52,380 nucleotides of DNA from Promethearchaeota archaeon (GTDB taxonomy: Archaea > Asgardarchaeota > Lokiarchaeia > Sigyniarchaeales > SOKP01), in NCBI GenBank assembly GCA_048937405.1, contig JBHLNF010000017.1:1-52380 (forward strand), written 5' to 3'. Position numbers and translations under genes: made by a program. Shown one piece after another: positions 38,559 to 52,380 of the stretch. How positions within the stretch are numbered: the stretch's first letter is position 1; each line of letters begins with the position of its first letter. Under the pieces are notes generated by a model. It was not told the origin of the DNA. It did not search any database and saw only the letters and a program-made list of their open reading frames with translations.

Positions 38559-39749
38559 TTATCTTTGAATTAGTTGAATACATTCTTGAAAAAAATGTGA
38601 TCCGTTAGATTTATAAAAATTCTTATTATGATCTTGAAGTGAAATATTTTCGATACTTAATTTGTGTTTACGTCTTGAATCCATCAAATCCACAAAAGCC
38701 TCTAAGCGAGTACGCATTCCTTCTTGTCCTGAATGCTCATCAAATGAAAAATATATAACTGGAAGATCATATTTTTTTTTTAATTTGTTTGTAATAATGG
38801 TTCGGGCAGTTACCTCGGGCATACAGGTGAAAGGGTATGAATGAACAAATCCTAGCATTCCAGATTGAGCAGCATGAATATAACTTCCAATAACCCAAAT
38901 TGCCTCCCCTCCAATGTCCATAGAAATATAAGGTTTTGCTAGATGTTCTAACCATTTTCGATGGTAATTCAAATGAAATTTATGGACGATCCAATCATAC
39001 AAACTTAGAAATTGATGTATTTCAACCCCCATTTCTCCGAGTTTGCGTCTTATATCCACATTGACATATGGCTCTAAACTTATATGGATTTCACCAGATA
39101 ACATAACCTTCAAGGGAACTCTTGACTTATCAACATCAATCTTATTAAAATCTTCTTTAATGACTTTTTTAAAATTTCGAAGTTCTTTTAGTGTATTAGC
39201 TTGATCAAGTTTATTCAATACGCTATTTAATACATCAGTAGTGTCTCCCTGATTTCTCTCATATGCACGGAATAATCCTTCAGCGGTTTGAATATCATGC
39301 AATAATTTTGCTTTTTTTAGGAAAATAATTACAGCTTTCATGAATCGAGGATAAGAAAAAAGACCACTTTTACCACTAACCTCCTGAAGAGTCTGAACCC
39401 AGTGAAATTCAAGTAAATCTGCTTGATCTAAAGGAATTACTCTCACGTGTTTGTAACCCATATCATGTAAAAGGCGTTCTTGTACAGCATGATAAAACCC
39501 AAAACGACAAGGTCCACAATCTATAGCCATTACTAAAGTATCAGCACCTTTTTTAATAGCATTTACAAAGTCTCCTAGTGTTGCTTTAAATGGGAAACAT
39601 ACAAATTCTGGGCTGTATTTAACACCAACTTTAATAGCTTCTCTATTAGTAGGGTCAGGTATGATTACTTGTATTGATGGATCCAATTGCTCAAATAATG
39701 TTTTGAAAGCTACCCAATTTGGACCCATGTTCGGGAATGAGAGAATCAT
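38559..39749 (-). CDS. DUF2229 / 2-hydroxyacyl-CoA dehydratase-like reductase subunit (PlsR-like)
   Basis: SFPNMG, SPEFVCFPFK..LG, GPCRFGFY, GEI, PFTCMPE, FDEHSGQEGMRTRLEAF. Confidence 0.85.
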   Translation of the reverse strand: MILSFPNMGPNWVAFKTLFEQLDPSIQVIIPDPTNREAIKVGVKYSPEFVCFPFKATLGDFVNAIKKGADTLVMAIDCGPCRFGFYHAVQERLLHDMGYKHVRVIPLDQADLLEFHWVQTLQEVSGKSGLFSYPRFMKAVIIFLKKAKLLHDIQTAEGLFRAYERNQGDTTDVLNSVLNKLDQANTLKELRNFKKVIKEDFNKIDVDKSRVPLKVMLSGEIHISLEPYVNVDIRRKLGEMGVEIHQFLSLYDWIVHKFHLNYHRKWLEHLAKPYISMDIGGEAIWVIGSYIHAAQSGMLGFVHSYPFTCMPEVTARTIITNKLKKKYDLPVIYFSFDEHSGQEGMRTRLEAFVDLMDSRRKHKLSIENISLQDHNKNFYKSNGSHFFQECIQLIQR

Positions 39750-39966
39750 ATACCCTTGAACTCCTTAAATCTAATTATTTTCTACTGTTGTAATTAAAAA
39801 TGATTAAGATTGATGTTTATTTAAATAAACTTTTGTTTAAATAACAAAACAAATAATAAAAATATACCCATTATGAACAAATTATCAAAAGTATGATTGT
39901 CCTTATTAAAAATCTTAGTTTTGGTTAATAAATTTCAACTATAATAATCCAATTTAATTAAGAATT

Positions 39967-41614: not shown

Positions 41615-43096
41615 TTGAGTTCTAAACAGAAAAAGGAGAATAAAAAAGACAAAAAACAAAAACTCAAAAAAAACGAGATAATCATAAAAGAGGAAGATAT
41701 GGAAGATCAACAGAATTCAAGCAAAGGTAACATTTTTTCTATGCTTGATGAAATTGACGTAGCCATTAAAAAAGAGAGTAGAAAAACTGAAGAAACATTA
41801 AAAAAAGGTTTGATAGAGCGAAAACAAGAAGAAAAAAGAGAAGAAATTAAAACTAAAGAAATAAAGATTAGTGAAATAAAAAATAAAATTGAATCATTGA
41901 AGGATATTAAACAAGAATATTATGATAATGGAAATAATGAAAAAACTATAGAAATAAGTGAAAAAATAATAAGTCTTGCTAAAGAATATGATTTATTATT
42001 TATAGCATCTGAGGAAAGACTTTTTCTCGAACAATTAGAAAAAAAAATAAAAAAACCACAAAAAATTACTATTGATGAACAAATTGATAATCTAAAGAAG
42101 GTTAGACATGCACATTATATTCGAGAAAAATATGAAAAAGCAATTGAAGTATCTAAAAAAATAATCAACTTAGCAAATAGTGAAAATCTAAAAACCATCA
42201 TTTCAGAAGAAGAAAAGTTTATATCCTTAATAGAAGATAAAATAGAAGCAAAAACTTCCAAAACTAAATTCATTGAAACATTAAAAGTAAAAGATGTTCA
42301 AGAGAACCGGATGGAACAAAAGATCGTAGAAGATAAAATAAATATTGAGTCAAATATTAGTAAAGATTTTGTAAAAAATGAGATCGGAGAAGAAAAGAAA
42401 AACTCTGAAGAAACAAAGTTGAAACTTATAGAAGTGGAAATGGGAATTAAAGACAGAATATCGAACTTTGAAAAAGAAAGACAAAAATTCGAGGATGAAA
42501 TATTGAAATTTGAAGAGGAAAAAAAGAAAATTCAAGAGGAAAAGCGAAAATTCAATGAAGAAAAAGAAGCATTTAAATGGGAAAAACAAATGCTTGAAGT
42601 AGCAAAAGAAAAACTTAAGCAAGTTGAATTTAATCAAGACACAACTAATAAAGGAATAATAGAGGATTCGGAGATTAAGAAAATTGAAGAAATTGAATTG
42701 GATAAGAATGAAAAATTAAAAATTAATGAGCAAAAAGGGCAGCTCGAACGGGAAAAAAAACAATTTCTTGAGTTGGGAGACAAATTAAAGCAATTAAGAA
42801 AGAAATTTGAGGAAGAAAAGTGGAAATTTGAAGAAATAAAACAAAAATTCAGTGAGGAAAAAGAAATCTTTTCTAAGGAAAAGCAGGATTTTGAAGAAGA
42901 AAAAGAATATTTTAACAAGAAGAATATCGAATTTGAAGAACAAAAAAAAATCTTTGAAGAAAACTGGTTAAAATTTGAAATAGAAAAAGATAAGTTAAAA
43001 TTAGAAAAGCAAAAATTTGAAGAAGAAAAAGAAATATTTAATTGGGAAAAACAAATGTTTGAAGAATTGAAAAATTATGAGAAAGGAAACGAATAA
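41615..43096 (+). CDS. Charged coiled-coil protein with two TPR-like repeats and FEEEK heptad repeats
   Basis: Duplicated I..LK....Y.....EK.IE.S.KII.LA......I.SEE..F unit; Phe every 7 residues; two WEKQM motifs. Confidence 0.75.
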   Translation: MSSKQKKENKKDKKQKLKKNEIIIKEEDMEDQQNSSKGNIFSMLDEIDVAIKKESRKTEETLKKGLIERKQEEKREEIKTKEIKISEIKNKIESLKDIKQEYYDNGNNEKTIEISEKIISLAKEYDLLFIASEERLFLEQLEKKIKKPQKITIDEQIDNLKKVRHAHYIREKYEKAIEVSKKIINLANSENLKTIISEEEKFISLIEDKIEAKTSKTKFIETLKVKDVQENRMEQKIVEDKINIESNISKDFVKNEIGEEKKNSEETKLKLIEVEMGIKDRISNFEKERQKFEDEILKFEEEKKKIQEEKRKFNEEKEAFKWEKQMLEVAKEKLKQVEFNQDTTNKGIIEDSEIKKIEEIELDKNEKLKINEQKGQLEREKKQFLELGDKLKQLRKKFEEEKWKFEEIKQKFSEEKEIFSKEKQDFEEEKEYFNKKNIEFEEQKKIFEENWLKFEIEKDKLKLEKQKFEEEKEIFNWEKQMFEELKNYEKGNE

Positions 43097-46355: not shown

Positions 46356-47771
46356 TCAAATCTCTTTAATAAAAAGAGTATTTTTCTCATTGCGAAGCCT
46401 TTTTGCTTGAATAGCAATGGTTTCAAGAAGCCTACGTTGATTTGTTGATATCCAAGGACCTTCACAATCAATTGCGGCATAAGCTATCTCACTTTTATTT
46501 GCTAGAGGGCGAATAATAGCTTGGGAGTTCATAGCTGGTTGACAATTGAAAGTTCCTAAATTAATCAAACCATCATAAATGCCCTCTTTAACAGAATGCA
46601 AAAATCTTCCAGTAATTAATGGAGTTTCTGTGCAACTGTTTAGAGAGACATATTTATTTCCCTCATTAAAGAGATCGACAATATCTATAAAAGGATCAAA
46701 TAATAATTTTGATTTTCTCATTAGCTTTCTGAACATCTTTAGTTGCGAAATTAAAAATTTGAAATTATTCTTATTTCTTTTTACTCGAATTACTTCTTTT
46801 CGCTCAATTTCATTTAAACCATCAGTTTTAAGTACTTCTTCTTTAAATTGATCTTTTGGATTGATGTATCCTTTTTTAAACCCAAACCTGATAGTACTTT
46901 CAGCTAATATTAAACTCATAGTTTCCACAATATCTACGACTTTTGTAATAATTCCTCTCTCAAGGAAAAATTCTTCAACTGGATAATGATCAAACATCAA
47001 ATTTAAACCACCAAAAATTAAGACCTTCGGTGTTTTTTCAACTGTTGATTTAAGAGGGATTTTACTAAGTTCTCTCGCCCATTTTAATAAAGAAGTGTTT
47101 ATTGTCTTCCTTCCTTCTCTTATGTTTTCAAAAAGACTATTTGTTAATTCTTCAAATTTTTCTAAAGCTTCAATTTTACTTTCAGCAATACATTCTAAAG
47201 CATTTCTAGCTTCAGTTATGTATTCTCCTAATATAAAAAATATATTTTCCCATGCTATTAAATCAGAATTTAATCCCAAGAATTTATTAGTATATTTTGG
47301 GAAGGCACCAAAAATTGCATTATTTAAATTCAATCTTTTTGCGAATGTTTCCCAAAGAACTGGCCATGCCCCATTTTGACATGGTCCGTGTTGATCTATA
47401 GGAATTCGATAAATTGATATTTCATTTTCTTTTCTATATTCATTAATATCCTTTAAAACTGCTCCTGCTATAGCAAAACTCGGAAGGCATTCTCGTCCAG
47501 AACAGATATTTTTAGCATATTGCATAATTGAAGCATCAGTTTCTTTGCCTATTCTTATATTTTTTTTATATTTTTTAAACAAATCTATCACAAGTCGCCT
47601 TCCGTAAGAATTCCGAGCTTCTGGGTTGATATATACTATTCTTGGATCATCAAGTTCTACTCTATCACCATTACTGTCAATAATAAAACTGTAATCATCT
47701 GAGAATCTCGCTTGTTTAAACTTATTTATTTCTTCGTCCTTAATTCCCTCTATTTGTTCTATTTTAGTCAT
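46356..47771 (-). CDS. PlsR-like DUF2229/dehydratase-reductase partner subunit
   Basis: CSGRECLP, GPCQNG, FNCQPA, IDCEG...LETIA; starts 2 nt after the upstream stop. Confidence 0.8.
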   Translation of the reverse strand: MTKIEQIEGIKDEEINKFKQARFSDDYSFIIDSNGDRVELDDPRIVYINPEARNSYGRRLVIDLFKKYKKNIRIGKETDASIMQYAKNICSGRECLPSFAIAGAVLKDINEYRKENEISIYRIPIDQHGPCQNGAWPVLWETFAKRLNLNNAIFGAFPKYTNKFLGLNSDLIAWENIFFILGEYITEARNALECIAESKIEALEKFEELTNSLFENIREGRKTINTSLLKWARELSKIPLKSTVEKTPKVLIFGGLNLMFDHYPVEEFFLERGIITKVVDIVETMSLILAESTIRFGFKKGYINPKDQFKEEVLKTDGLNEIERKEVIRVKRNKNNFKFLISQLKMFRKLMRKSKLLFDPFIDIVDLFNEGNKYVSLNSCTETPLITGRFLHSVKEGIYDGLINLGTFNCQPAMNSQAIIRPLANKSEIAYAAIDCEGPWISTNQRRLLETIAIQAKRLRNEKNTLFIKEI

Positions 47772-47773
47772 TT

Positions 47774-50731
47774 TTACATAGCAACACTTTCTAATATTTG
47801 TTCATTAATATTCTTTTTGGAATTTCGATATCGTTCTTCAATGATATCTAAAAATGCACCAACTCTGGTTTCAAATCCCGCATGAGCAGTATGGGAATCT
47901 ATTTCAAGATAACAAAATACTTGTCCTTCTAGTTGCTGTCGAAAATGATGATACATAGTACCATCAGGCCCACAAGAAAAACATGATACAAAACAAATGT
48001 ATAAATCAGGATTTTTTTTTACATGCTCAACCGCATTTTCAATCTCTTGAGTAAGGCTCCATACATTCCGAGAATGTGATGTTTCCTTATTTAATAATGG
48101 TAATAAATCAGAAGGAATTGCATTATAACCTCTACTAACAATTTTACGGGGAAGTGCTATATTCACGTCAGGAGGATAAACAACATAAGGTCTACCTGCT
48201 ATAATTACTGACGGTTTTTTTAATAAATCTTTTAATTTATTTTTCCCATACTCATTATATTTTTCTTTAAACTTTTTATAATGAGATAATGCATCTTTTC
48301 CGGCATTTATACCCATTTCCTTTTCTAATCCTAATAAACAAGCAATCCTTCCAAATTCTTGTAACGTTGTTTCGATAAGATCTTCCGAAATCCCAATATG
48401 AGGTGATAATATCTTTTCACTTTCATTTTCAAAAGCCGCTCGGATAATGTCAGGGATAGTTGTTGTGGAAGGGCAAGTATAACCATGAATATATCTTGAT
48501 GGGATTTCCAATTCAACTACATAAGGTAAGAAAATAAAATCTACATTTCGATTAATTAGATCATTTACTGCTCCATGAACTAGTTCACCAGGATAACAAA
48601 TAGGTGCTATTGTCTTGGTATTACCTAATTTTGAAGGGTTTGATAACATTACATTGTATCCAAGCTCATTGATGAATTTGGTATATAATGGGAAAAGTAT
48701 ATGAGATGTTAAAGCCATAGGTATTCCAATCGTTCCTCGAGCATTCTTTAAAGTTATAGCACCAAATTCTTCAAACATCATCTTATTTCTTACTTCTATG
48801 ATATCCTGACCTTCCTCTATTTCTGTACCTTTTTGGCGCAATAATTTATACTTAGAGCATAAACCACCAAAAGGATAAACTTTTCCTCTAATTAAGATCC
48901 TTTCAATTTCGCAATTATTTTCACACGCCTTACATCTAAACGTATCTTTAATTTGTATTTCTCCTTTTATTAAGTTTTTAAGATTGTATTCTCTTTCAGA
49001 TATAATATTATTTTCCAGAAGATCTTTTGTCATAAGAGCTGTACCTACTGCACCCATAAGTTCAGGATGAGCTGGGACTATAACCTTTCGTTGTGAGCGA
49101 GCTGCTATAGCTAATGCGACTGATCTATTAAGAGCAACACCTCCAAGGAAAAGAAGATTCTCTCCTATATGACGTGGACCTACTATCCGCGAAATATAAT
49201 TATCCGCAATTGAATAAACTAAGCCTGCAACAACATCTTCAATCTTGGCTCCTTGCTGAAGGGCATTTCTCAAATCAGTATTAATAAAAGCCGCACATCG
49301 TTCTCCAAACGCAATTGGATGAGTACTCTTTATCGCAATATCACTTATATCCTCTACCTTTATACCCATATCAACTGATGCAGATTCTTCAAGAAAACTT
49401 CCTGTTCCCGCAGAACATCCCTCGTTCATCGCATAGTCAATTGGAACTCCTTTAAGAAATGAGATGAATTTTGAATCTTGACCTCCAATTTCAAATACAG
49501 TGTTAACATTTGGAATTTCTTCAGTGGCAGCTCTAGCGTGCGTTAAAATTTCATTAAAACTACGACAATTATCTAAATAAACAGAAACCATCTCTCTGGC
49601 AGACCCACTTACCCCACATTGAATTAATTTGATAGATTTATTACCTACTTGTTTTATAAGGCTATCAATACATTGTTTAGTTGCTAAAATGGGATTTCCT
49701 AACGTTCTTAAATAAACACTTGCATCTACTGAACAAGTTGATGTGTTAAACAATACAGCTTTGGTTGTGGTAGAACCAGCATCTATTCCAAGAATATATT
49801 TAACTCTCTCTTTTACTCTCCTCTCATTATCTATATTAACCCGATAATCTAAAAGAGACTTGGATTGTGAAAGGGGCTCATGAGTCTGAAATTCAAATTT
49901 TAAAGGTTTAAGCCAATCCTTAGTACTATTGGAAGTTTTTTCTAATTCAGAAGCAAATATAGAGGCACCAAATGCTTCTAGGTAGGGACTTTCAGGTAAT
50001 ACTTTGATATCAGAATTGGGTAAAAATCTAGATAAATTTTCAATGAAAACTTTATTTTGAGTTACTCCACCTGAAACCAGTACTAACTTTGTAGGCCATT
50101 GAGCGGTTTGTATCATTTCACTAACTTTTCTTGCTAGATCGTTTATTAACGTTTTAGCAATATCTTTAGGTTCACATTCACCCTTGTTAAGTTTATGAGT
50201 AGCATCTGATTTACAATGAACAGAGCATCTAGTCGCTAACTGAGTAAACTCACCCTCTTTACTAATTTTAATTCCTTCTTCTATGGATAATCCCATTCTT
50301 TGAAGTTGCTGTACTATGAATTCACCAGTACCCGCAGCACACTTTGAAGTAGAGATAATATTTTTTATTATTCCATTTTTTATTGGATAAACACTAAAAG
50401 TCTCTCCACCAAGAGATAATACAATATCCGGTTGTAAATTGTAAAATGAGAGTACTTTTTCTAAGCATTCTATCTCTGAAATATATGGAAAATTAAGAAA
50501 ACTCCCTGTAGCTTGTCCCGTTATAACAATTTTTGAATTTTCATCAACATTATATTTTTTAAATATCTCTAATATCTTCTTTTTAGGATACCCTTCATGA
50601 CGTATTACCTCACTCGCTATTACGCCATTGGTACTTTTACGAACCCACTTTACAGAGACTGCTCCAATTTCTAAACCTTCAAAATATTGAAGTTCCCTAT
50701 TAGTTGCTCTAGCAAGACTCCTATCTGGCAT
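47774..50731 (-). CDS. PlsA/Ger-like fusion: two ASKHA [4Fe-4S] activator domains plus a DUF2229 reductase domain
   Basis: Domain 1: GLEIGAVSVK, KCAAGTGEF, RCSVHC. Domain 2: GIDAGSTTTK, EIGGQDSK, GCSAGTGSF, RCAAF. Linker CKACENNC..GGLC. Then CYPGE..HG, CP, FSCGPD, EIDSHTA.AG..TR..AF. Confidence 0.88.
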   Translation of the reverse strand: MPDRSLARATNRELQYFEGLEIGAVSVKWVRKSTNGVIASEVIRHEGYPKKKILEIFKKYNVDENSKIVITGQATGSFLNFPYISEIECLEKVLSFYNLQPDIVLSLGGETFSVYPIKNGIIKNIISTSKCAAGTGEFIVQQLQRMGLSIEEGIKISKEGEFTQLATRCSVHCKSDATHKLNKGECEPKDIAKTLINDLARKVSEMIQTAQWPTKLVLVSGGVTQNKVFIENLSRFLPNSDIKVLPESPYLEAFGASIFASELEKTSNSTKDWLKPLKFEFQTHEPLSQSKSLLDYRVNIDNERRVKERVKYILGIDAGSTTTKAVLFNTSTCSVDASVYLRTLGNPILATKQCIDSLIKQVGNKSIKLIQCGVSGSAREMVSVYLDNCRSFNEILTHARAATEEIPNVNTVFEIGGQDSKFISFLKGVPIDYAMNEGCSAGTGSFLEESASVDMGIKVEDISDIAIKSTHPIAFGERCAAFINTDLRNALQQGAKIEDVVAGLVYSIADNYISRIVGPRHIGENLLFLGGVALNRSVALAIAARSQRKVIVPAHPELMGAVGTALMTKDLLENNIISEREYNLKNLIKGEIQIKDTFRCKACENNCEIERILIRGKVYPFGGLCSKYKLLRQKGTEIEEGQDIIEVRNKMMFEEFGAITLKNARGTIGIPMALTSHILFPLYTKFINELGYNVMLSNPSKLGNTKTIAPICYPGELVHGAVNDLINRNVDFIFLPYVVELEIPSRYIHGYTCPSTTTIPDIIRAAFENESEKILSPHIGISEDLIETTLQEFGRIACLLGLEKEMGINAGKDALSHYKKFKEKYNEYGKNKLKDLLKKPSVIIAGRPYVVYPPDVNIALPRKIVSRGYNAIPSDLLPLLNKETSHSRNVWSLTQEIENAVEHVKKNPDLYICFVSCFSCGPDGTMYHHFRQQLEGQVFCYLEIDSHTAHAGFETRVGAFLDIIEERYRNSKKNINEQILESVAM

Positions 50732-51001
50732 TTTTTTATTTTTACTTAGATATCGATCGATTTAAATAAATACAAGAATAAGAATATAATCTAATTTAAA
50801 TATTATACCACAAAAAATATGATGACTGATATTATTCAATGAAGCTCATTAAATAATTCATTATTTTACCCTAATTAAGTAAAAAATTTTTGTTTATTGG
50901 TTATTCATTTTTAAATAAAATAAATTATTAAATAATCTATTTAATTTTAATAAAAAAAGAATACAGGACTTTTTAGTTTATTCTTAAGAATGAGAAGAAA
51001 T

Positions 51002-51016: not shown

Positions 51017-51327
51017 TCATAAAGTTTTTGCAGATCTTAACTTTTCTGATTCCATGGCTAATTTCTTTTTCTTTCTACGAGCCATTTCAACGAACGCCTC
51101 TATACGAGTAATCATTACCGCTTCTCCACTATGCTCTCGATAGCGTTCACGAAATCTCCCTAGATAGTTTTGAAGGGAAAACAGACGAACTCAGGGCTGT
51201 GTTTCACGCCAATCTTCACATCGTTACGATTCGTGGGATCTGGCAGAATCACCTCGGCACCCATACACTCGAAGAAAGTCTTGAACGCCGGCCGCGAATT
51301 GCCCATATTTGGAAAAGAAACTTTCAT
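51017..51327 (-). pseudogene. Internally deleted DUF2229 reductase pseudogene
   Basis: MKVSFPNMG...CFPFKTI*GDFVNAIE is fused out of frame at about 51136 to the C-terminal motif EHSGEAVMITRIEAFVEMARR...*; paralog of 38559-39749. Confidence 0.85.
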
Positions 51328-51374: not shown

Positions 51375-52380
51375 CTAATTTCTTGAAAAAAACTCGAGTG
51401 CATTCTTAACGGTGAATCCTATATCTAATTTCTTTGATGGATTCAGCATTGTTAAAACCATTGACATTGGTTTTTCAATACTAGACACCAAATATTCAAA
51501 ATTGGATTTCGGCTTAAAATATATATTTTTTATTTCATCCGGAACCACATACTTGATATCTCTAAACAAGGGATTAGTTTTCTTGTTGCCAACCATTAAA
51601 TCATGAAATGATTCGACTCTTGTTCTAAGTCCTTCAAAACCCGAGCTTCCATCAAGACTAATATGAATTTGGGGCATGTAAAACTTGTCCATATTTTTCT
51701 CAGCTTCTAACATTCCCATGAGGGATATTTCAGGCATGCAAGTAAATGGGAATATATGGACAAAACCATCAAAACCTTTTTCTTGAGACTCAAGATAACT
51801 TCCCATATTCCACACAGCCTCCCCCCCAATATCCATTGGAATATACTTTCTTGCAACACGTTCAAGTCGTCTTCTTCGTTTGCTGGCGTTAAGTTTGTAC
51901 ATGACCCAATCAAAGACATCATACTGCTTGTGAACCTCGATACCCATGACGCCTAATTCTCCCATCAGATCATAATTAACCCATTTCTCCAACATGACTT
52001 GGATTTCTCCAGTATAACAAACCCTCAAAGGTTCCATTTCCTTGTCAATAGGAATCTTGCGAAAATTTTCATCTATCGTTCTATCAAAATTAGATAATTT
52101 CATCAAATTATTTTCGCTATCAAGTAAATTCATCAAAGTATGAACTACTTTGGTAGTCATTGCTTTGTTTTTTTCTCGACATCTAACAAGTCCTTCAATA
52201 TGGCTTATTCTTTCAACATAGTATGCTTTAACCAAGAACAAGAGTGTGTTTCTTAAAATTTTATAATCATCAAATTTTCTTCCTGTTCTTTTTTCTAAAT
52301 CATGAAATACCCTTAGCCATTCAAGATTTCGAAAATCATCTTGACGCAGATAAAACATTCTAACATCCTTGAATCCCATA
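51375..52380 (-). CDS. DUF2229 / PlsR-like reductase subunit, 5' end outside the window
   Basis: TGEIQV, DIGGEAVW..GS, GFVHIFPFTCMPE, LDGSSGFEGLRTRVESF; colinear with 38559-39749. Confidence 0.85.
   Translation of the reverse strand, partial: MGFKDVRMFYLRQDDFRNLEWLRVFHDLEKRTGRKFDDYKILRNTLLFLVKAYYVERISHIEGLVRCREKNKAMTTKVVHTLMNLLDSENNLMKLSNFDRTIDENFRKIPIDKEMEPLRVCYTGEIQVMLEKWVNYDLMGELGVMGIEVHKQYDVFDWVMYKLNASKRRRRLERVARKYIPMDIGGEAVWNMGSYLESQEKGFDGFVHIFPFTCMPEISLMGMLEAEKNMDKFYMPQIHISLDGSSGFEGLRTRVESFHDLMVGNKKTNPLFRDIKYVVPDEIKNIYFKPKSNFEYLVSSIEKPMSMVLTMLNPSKKLDIGFTVKNALEFFSRN

Follow-up and report, generated by a model that had tools for sequence, protein, structure and literature searches.

A two-gene Ger-like reductase linked to an acyltransferase operon in a Lokiarchaeia genome, a candidate for bacterial-type ether-lipid formation

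Whether an archaeon could run bacterial ester-to-ether lipid chemistry is the question raised by two adjacent genes on contig JBHLNF010000017.1 of a Promethearchaeota archaeon (GCA_048937405.1, class Lokiarchaeia). The window analysed here is that whole contig, C5, with a length of 52,380 nucleotides (nt), in a 4.47-Mb genome of 29% G+C. One gene encodes a protein of 985 amino acids (aa) and the other, 2 nt downstream, a protein of 471 aa, both open reading frames being as an initial annotation of the DNA had described them; they are referred to below as the pair. We know of no Asgard archaeon for which synthesis of fatty-acyl or alkyl glycerolipids has been demonstrated, and for this one the claim rests on genes alone. 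From its sequence, the pair is a real, intact member of the PlsA/Ger family, on the side of the glycerol ester reductase Ger and not in the Pls clade, and working like Ger is the most likely of its functions. The predicted activity, that of an accessory Ger-like acyl-glycerol ester reductase, is put forward tentatively, as a possibility that falls somewhat short of probable. It is suggested by collinearity with Ger, a supported Ger group, conservation of the BBD part, linkage to an acyltransferase operon with a conserved junction, and the fact that this operon holds the only PF01553 protein of the genome.

The 985-aa protein contains two PF01869 stretches (E 2e-53) followed by the DUF2229 domain, PF09989, at residues 667-876 (E 3e-39). 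This succession is the BBD arrangement, two PF01869 domains and then PF09989 (PMC13159169), a part that is conserved in all alkyl-ether producers (PMC13159169), and the matches bear out the activator and DUF2229 domains of the initial annotation. The phosphate motif of the first activator domain has Glu for Asp, and Ger is likewise degenerate there (Cys). The cysteines of the activators, the linker and both reductase halves are invariant or nearly so in the family. In the HgdC dimer, the activators share a [4Fe-4S] cluster; by the same chemistry, two cluster cysteines in each activator domain imply one shared cluster, so that the annotated pair of domains holds and a cluster for each probably does not. 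The protein scores above the cut-off of the general activase model TIGR00241. Cut-offs were missed for the benzoyl-CoA reductase models TIGR02259, TIGR02261 and TIGR03192 (113/578, 76/313 and 77/380 bits) and for the methanogenesis marker 15 model TIGR03286 (126/456 bits). PF06050 has no match in the pair, which also lacks the layout of a stand-alone 260-aa activator with PF06050 alpha and beta subunits.

For the 471-aa protein, neither Pfam nor NCBIfam gives a match. It aligns with residues 1021-1450 of authentic Ger (E 3e-24) and with the other reductase in the window (hhalign, 98.5%), and its predicted model (predicted local distance difference test score 89) finds BzdNO, HadBC and DCCP as best matches (Z ~10, root-mean-square deviation (rmsd) 5.0-5.4), all of which identify it as a reductase-type subunit. 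No solved structures of PlsA or Ger proteins were found. Fused relatives of the pair, at 60-64% identity, indicate that the two subunits are partners.

As reference for Ger, the validated protein of Desulfatibacillum alkenivorans (SHJ90043.1) was used together with its paralogue Ger2, both confirmed by accession. The pair is collinear with Ger along its whole length, with 37% identity over residues 1-994 and 22% over residues 1021-1450; against Ger2 and the Pls-type proteins of Listeria, Fusobacterium and Collinsella, identity is 25-28%. The main tree is unrooted and comprises 659 columns, and quick trees under LG+G4 and LG+C20 agreed; the Thermotoga maritima Ger (Tmari_0479) is not among its sequences. 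Six Loki sequences form one clade that sits inside a set of proteins from Desulfobacterota and Myxococcota (54-69% identity). This wider query clade, which holds both fused and split members, forms one group with the Ger subclade and the fused 1,400-aa Asgard form (SH-aLRT 99 under both models). Separate trees of each activator domain recover the same Ger-side group (100/99 and 100/98), and place it apart from stand-alone HgdC/YjiL-type activators, the dehydratase outgroups being annotated homologues rather than characterised HgdC, FldI or HadI. Thus, the family membership proposed in the initial annotation is upheld, and the pair is placed away from the stand-alone activators of dehydratases and benzoyl-CoA reductases. 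The query and Ger subclades are separate, each with support of 100, and a sister relationship between them is not rejected (approximately unbiased (AU) test, p-AU 0.36).

These trees bear on whether the pair is a true plasmalogen synthase of the PlsA/PlsR type, making vinyl ethers, which was one of the options in the initial annotation. A Fusobacterium Pls-type pair has the same two-gene split (975 + 404 aa), and Ger and PlsA are not distinguishable by their sequences alone (PMC13274423). However, the split point is not diagnostic because the pair's own clade has both fused and split members, identity to the Listeria, Fusobacterium and Collinsella proteins is only 27-28%, and a joint clade with the Pls-type proteins is rejected (AU p=0.008), where the Pls clade is represented by orthologue candidates from those three genera and the tested C. 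perfringens and E. faecalis proteins are left out. Since the pair lies on the Ger side, plasmalogen synthesis is the weaker option, and is very unlikely.

The locus is native to the Lokiarchaeia genome, as the closest homologues of the pair come from Promethearchaeota metagenome-assembled genomes (MAGs) in which the same TrmO, phosphoesterase and dipeptidase genes are neighbours. Contamination or mis-binning was ruled out by orthologues with the same neighbours in >25 Promethearchaeota genomes. Both genes are under purifying selection (dN/dS ~0.09-0.13 against relatives), which rules out a pseudogene. A second intact copy of the pair lies on host contig C19 (C19:13171-18706; L007:5172-10707), with 72% and 60% identity, and sits behind MarR and carboxymuconolactone-decarboxylase-family genes, away from the lipid operon.

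A search of 119 genomes from the host's family found the 471-aa gene in 32: 27/40 in the host's genus, 3/41 and 2/5 in two others, and none in ten further genera sampled. This patchy presence makes the pair accessory. In the neighbouring family, where genomes of 4.3, 4.4 and 6.0 Mb are complete, only the fused form is found, at 23-27%. Joining the query clade with that fused Asgard form is rejected (p-AU 1.6e-5), which rules out ancestral Asgard inheritance of the pair. By its position in the trees, the pair is a late, lineage-limited import from bacteria into Lokiarchaeia, the direction of transfer in these unrooted trees following from the nesting among bacterial proteins and the narrow archaeal range. 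The donor would have been a Desulfobacterota-like bacterium and the recipient an ancestor of this genus, in which the pair was then retained within the acyltransferase operon.

That operon is found, in part, elsewhere in the host genome. The end of contig C13 carries genes for a HAD phosphatase, a 555-aa double PlsC (PlsC2) and, 20 nt on, a free DUF2229 protein cut by the contig end. The full operon in relatives consists of the HAD, PlsC2 and DUF2229 genes, optional genes (a FAD-DUF2229 fusion with an activator and a 441-aa reductase), and then a 396-aa reductase and a 342-aa activator. Since the window ends within the 441-aa gene, of which it has the 3' part, and also carries the last two genes of the operon (Table 1), contigs C13 and C5 are probably adjacent. 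The gap between them is predicted to span ~4.5 kb and to contain the remainder of the DUF2229 gene, a FAD-DUF2229 fusion and a second activator. The pair comes directly after the HAD-PlsC2-DUF2229 genes in six relatives (L047, L049, L053, L057, L062 and L063) and lies within 8 kb of double-PlsC operon genes in eight more, giving a total of 14, while operon genes are absent from three pair loci with long flanks (L050, L054 and L064). The link between pair and acyltransferase is real. A recombination scar between operon genes and pair (Table 1) has a DUF2229 part 77% identical to the operon's free DUF2229 gene, and the junction at the 3' end of this part lies 285 nt upstream of the 985-aa start, as compared to 287-385 nt in relatives. 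The scar is also present in L045, L058 and L083, ruling out an assembly artefact. Its G+C content is ~46% versus 29% for the genome, and its 5' part is 75% identical to the reductase of another genus versus 64% to the host's own, which together suggest a foreign donor.

Other features of the operon were recorded in the host and its relatives. The FAD (flavin adenine dinucleotide)-binding (PF01565)-DUF2229 fusion of 812-837 aa lies inside the acyltransferase operon of relatives (L112:128-2641, minus strand; L113, L114, L110), and in the host this gene probably falls in the gap between C13 and C5. PF01565 includes alkyl-dihydroxyacetone-phosphate synthase, and the best PDB matches of the fusion are cytokinin dehydrogenases. 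A free FAD protein of an Acidobacteriota MAG (L206:33-1403), 44% identical, lies 2 kb from a Ger-side gene. At L127:8767-17493, in a genome from another order of the same class, a split DUF2229-reductase-activator set is aligned with genes for a HAD protein, a LarA-like protein and an 876-aa triple PlsC. The block separating the operon halves in the window includes a 493-aa Glu/Lys-rich protein (41615-43096, plus strand), probably a coiled coil, with a similar gene in relatives. A perfect 14-bp AT palindrome (39816-39829) lies 67 nt upstream of the 396-aa reductase and has six exact copies in the genome.

If the pair is a Ger-like reductase, it would be an oxygen-sensitive, ATP-driven Fe-S enzyme of the Ger side of the family. 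In HgdC and HadI, energy from ATP sends low-potential electrons singly out of a shared [4Fe-4S] cluster. By this chemistry, ATP hydrolysis by the doubled activator would drive one electron at a time into the reductase half, where the DUF2229 domain and the 471-aa subunit may form a two-cluster catalytic heterodimer. Its substrate would most likely be a fatty-acyl ester of glycerol, supplied by the double PlsC to which the pair is linked; as in Ger, reduction of the ester carbonyl via a ketyl radical would then leave an alkyl ether. Since members of the host's family can do without the pair, this ether lipid would be of low abundance or made only under certain conditions.

A number of observations weigh against an ester reductase of this kind. 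Close orthology to Ger was not found, as the pair falls outside the D. alkenivorans Ger subclade (39% vs 64-72%). Ger2 shares this architecture, yet its expression in E. coli yielded no ether lipids, although the expressed protein may have been inactive (PMC11150832). The second subunit is altered: the 985-aa protein has lost 0 of 62 family-wide conserved positions, whereas the 471-aa subunit has lost 5 of 17, as compared to 1-3 in other groups. In particular, the acidic residue of a Gly-Glu/Asp motif in the last reductase domain is present in 0/24 query-clade members versus 30/30 outside sequences, and is kept in Ger, Pls-type proteins and the host's split reductases. This motif was observed in the present analysis and is not a published Ger criterion. 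Two further lost positions are close in sequence to cluster cysteines. On the sequence, these altered residues are evidence of divergence and not of loss of function, and they suggest a lipid class, position or end product other than that in Desulfatibacillum. The genomic setting raises similar doubts. The flanks of 26 bacterial loci from the query clade contain no recognisable acyltransferase gene, and the synteny seen among the archaeal kin may descend from one insertion. In the Asgard archaea at large, Heimdallarchaeaceae have DUF2229 systems in 25/26 genomes and PlsC in 0/26, whereas another family has PlsC in 16/16 and DUF2229 in 2/16, such that the two functions are uncoupled across Asgard genomes. 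Heimdallarchaeaceae (family f6; L125:8784-12971; L121) also have a fused Ger-side protein together with split DUF2229 systems.

Some of the same observations favour a radical reductase or dehydratase acting on a soluble acyl-CoA or an acyl-carrier thioester, an alternative that the initial annotation had already raised. Here, the position in the operon would reflect acyl-chain tailoring for the acyltransferase, or a site that collects inserted genes. The stretch between the operon halves does contain many variable genes, the fold is that of acyl-CoA enzymes, and the site of the second subunit is reshaped. Bacterial loci of the same clade, which count against a lipid ester as substrate, are in accord with a thioester: in L066 and L068 the pair stands between a family III CoA-transferase and acyl-CoA dehydrogenases, in a Desulfosudis MAG (L081:1-12304) it follows by 26 nt a multi-module polyketide synthase with a terminal reductase domain, and in L077 it comes after FabF and an NMO-family gene. 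In the Loki relatives L050 and L056, the genes shortly before the pair encode an acyl-CoA dehydrogenase and a flavin oxidoreductase. However, an acyl-CoA context is not a consistent feature of most bacterial sisters either, the pair branches with Ger and not with HgdC/YjiL-type activators, every benzoyl-CoA reductase cut-off is missed with no match to PF06050, and the host already has separate conventional HgdABC-type sets on contigs C6 and C27. The alternative draws real support from the bacterial contexts and the altered subunit, and is considered unlikely, though a serious competitor to a Ger-like reductase.

The lipid genes of the host bear on whose lipid a Ger-like reductase would act upon. 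Geranylgeranylglyceryl phosphate synthase and CarS are present, as are two PlsY-like fusions. Glycerol-1-phosphate dehydrogenase (G1PDH) has weak matches only, which may correspond to the Bacillus-like G1PDH described for Lokiarchaeia (PMC6737245). For head-group supply, CdsA has no match above cut-off, a further point against a Ger-like reductase; for backbone supply, GpsA has none clearly above background, and the matches to glycerol kinase and GlpA are below cut-off. These gaps are consistent with a pair that acts on scavenged bacterial or neutral storage lipids, such as diacylglycerols released by the HAD phosphatase that precedes PlsC2 in the operon, and not on the archaeon's own membrane phospholipids. 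In agreement, a gene of the lysoplasmalogenase family YhhN (C17:143667-144236) occurs in the host and in 10 of 12 members of its genus, regardless of whether they carry the pair, and the cultured relative MK-D1, in co-culture, gave the isoprenoid chains phytane and biphytanes after ether cleavage (PMC7015854). Yet YhhN is also found in E. coli and in G177, a genus member that lacks the pair, and MK-D1 belongs to another family, in which just the fused form occurs. Action on scavenged or neutral lipids thus appears distinctly improbable.

A Ger-like reductase has a more far-reaching, and quite unlikely, extension: in one Lokiarchaeia genus, double-PlsC esters would be converted by up to three PlsA/Ger-family machines encoded at a single locus, with the pair, by virtue of its reshaped second subunit, making an undescribed ether class, for instance a mixed isoprenoid/alkyl diether. 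Such an enzyme would be the first from an archaeon with demonstrated synthesis of non-isoprenoid ethers. More generally, the query clade, with >20 bacterial and archaeal lineages and an altered catalytic subunit, may hold new radical chemistry.

Part of this ground had been covered before. Ger homologues in Lokiarchaeota, including P. syntrophicum, and in Heimdallarchaeota were reported by Sahonero-Canavesi et al. 2022, ascribed to lateral transfer, and discussed with a link to eukaryogenesis (PMC13159169), while PlsC, PlsY and possible chimeric lipids in Lokiarchaeota were discussed earlier still (PMC6737245). The novelty implied by the initial annotation, both for ether-lipid genes in Lokiarchaeia and for their meaning in eukaryogenesis, is therefore superseded. 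On the second point, a lineage-limited import nested among Desulfobacterota proteins also tells little about eukaryogenesis. What is new is the placement relative to authentic Ger, the link to the only acyltransferase gene, the late and patchy origin, and the reshaped second subunit; literature searches found no paper on the operon link or the altered subunit. With this locus, the genes to be tested directly in E. coli by the published assay are defined. Were ether formation confirmed, an archaeon would be able to run bacterial ester-to-ether chemistry, with consequences for the lipid divide and for the use of ether lipids as biomarkers in sediments. Even then, a late and patchy import would not be evidence of an ancestral trait of the eukaryote host, for which the conserved split system beside PlsC, with family motifs kept, is the better target.

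Features of the pair and of its surroundings are collected in Table 1. The near-palindrome upstream of the pair may be just a TATA box. It recurs within 2 mismatches in 17/29 orthologues versus 15% of AT-matched controls, and is not taken as evidence since the kin are not independent and the distance is that of a TATA box. In one relative, the pair adjoins a gene for a 683-aa protein (L119:2853-4904, minus strand) with CDC48 N-terminal domains and two Ras-family GTPase domains.

Table 1. Positions in the window of the gene pair, its domains and nearby features.
Feature	Position	Strand	Remarks
First gene of pair	47774..50731	-	985-aa activator-activator-Cys linker-DUF2229 reductase (BBD+H); corresponds to N-terminal two thirds of Ger
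First ASKHA activator domain	49946..50686 (boundaries approximate)	-	Degenerate phosphate motif; cluster Cys131, Cys169
Second ASKHA activator domain	49031..49792	-	Canonical ATP motifs; cluster Cys439, Cys479
Four-cysteine linker	48857..48934	-	Cys600, 603, 607, 625; invariant across 50 aligned family members
DUF2229 (PF09989), first reductase domain	48104..48733	-	Cys712, Cys753; Cys920 further on
Second gene of pair	46356..47771	-	471-aa second reductase subunit; Cys95, Cys131, Cys410; corresponds to C-terminal third of Ger
Gly255 of 471-aa subunit	47007..47009	-	Glu or Asp in 30/30 family members outside query clade
AT-rich near-palindrome	50757..50770	-	26-39 nt upstream of 985-aa start
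Recombination scar	51017..51327	-	5' 64 codons of R396-type reductase joined to last 39 codons of free DUF2229 gene
441-444-aa reductase of split system, 3' part	51375..52380	-	Cut by contig end
396-aa reductase of split acyltransferase-linked system	38559..39749	-	Keeps acidic motif
342-aa single-domain activator of split system	37521..38549	-	Context gene

Among known systems, Ger of D. alkenivorans (SHJ90043.1; PMC13159169, PMC11150832) is the closest in design. It shares with the pair the BBD architecture, all 14 cysteines, collinearity over the whole length, the degenerate first ATP motif, and membership of one supported group in three trees. The pair differs in being two genes where Ger is one, in its separate subclade, archaeal host and double-PlsC link, and in a second subunit that lacks the Gly-Glu and Cys-Arg motifs; extra cysteines are found at Cys917 and Cys436. 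PlsA/PlsR, the anaerobic plasmalogen synthase of Clostridium perfringens, encoded by a single gene in Enterococcus and Listeria (PMC9702350), has the same domain order and two-gene split point, but the pair is only 27-28% identical to the Listeria, Fusobacterium and Collinsella proxies and belongs to another clade (AU p=0.008). The fused Asgard Ger homologues, such as those of Ca. Heimdallarchaeum aukensis (UJG40122.1) and Ca. Harpocratesius repetitus (MCF2141832.1), belong to the same Ger-side group at ~40% identity; in contrast to the pair they are single proteins of 1,395-1,450 aa that keep the acidic motif residue, do not form one clade with it (p-AU 1.6e-5), and are not beside PlsC in the loci read. 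More distant are the 2-hydroxyacyl-CoA dehydratases HgdABC and HadBCI, the class I benzoyl-CoA reductases BzdNOPQ and MbdONPQ, and DCCP:DCCP-R, which share the ASKHA activator fold (rmsd 2.2-2.5, ~29% identity), a distant reductase fold (Z ~10) and ATP-driven electron transfer, whereas the pair has a fused and doubled activator, the four-cysteine linker, reductase subunits only 9-13% identical to theirs, scores that miss the family cut-offs, and a position on another branch.

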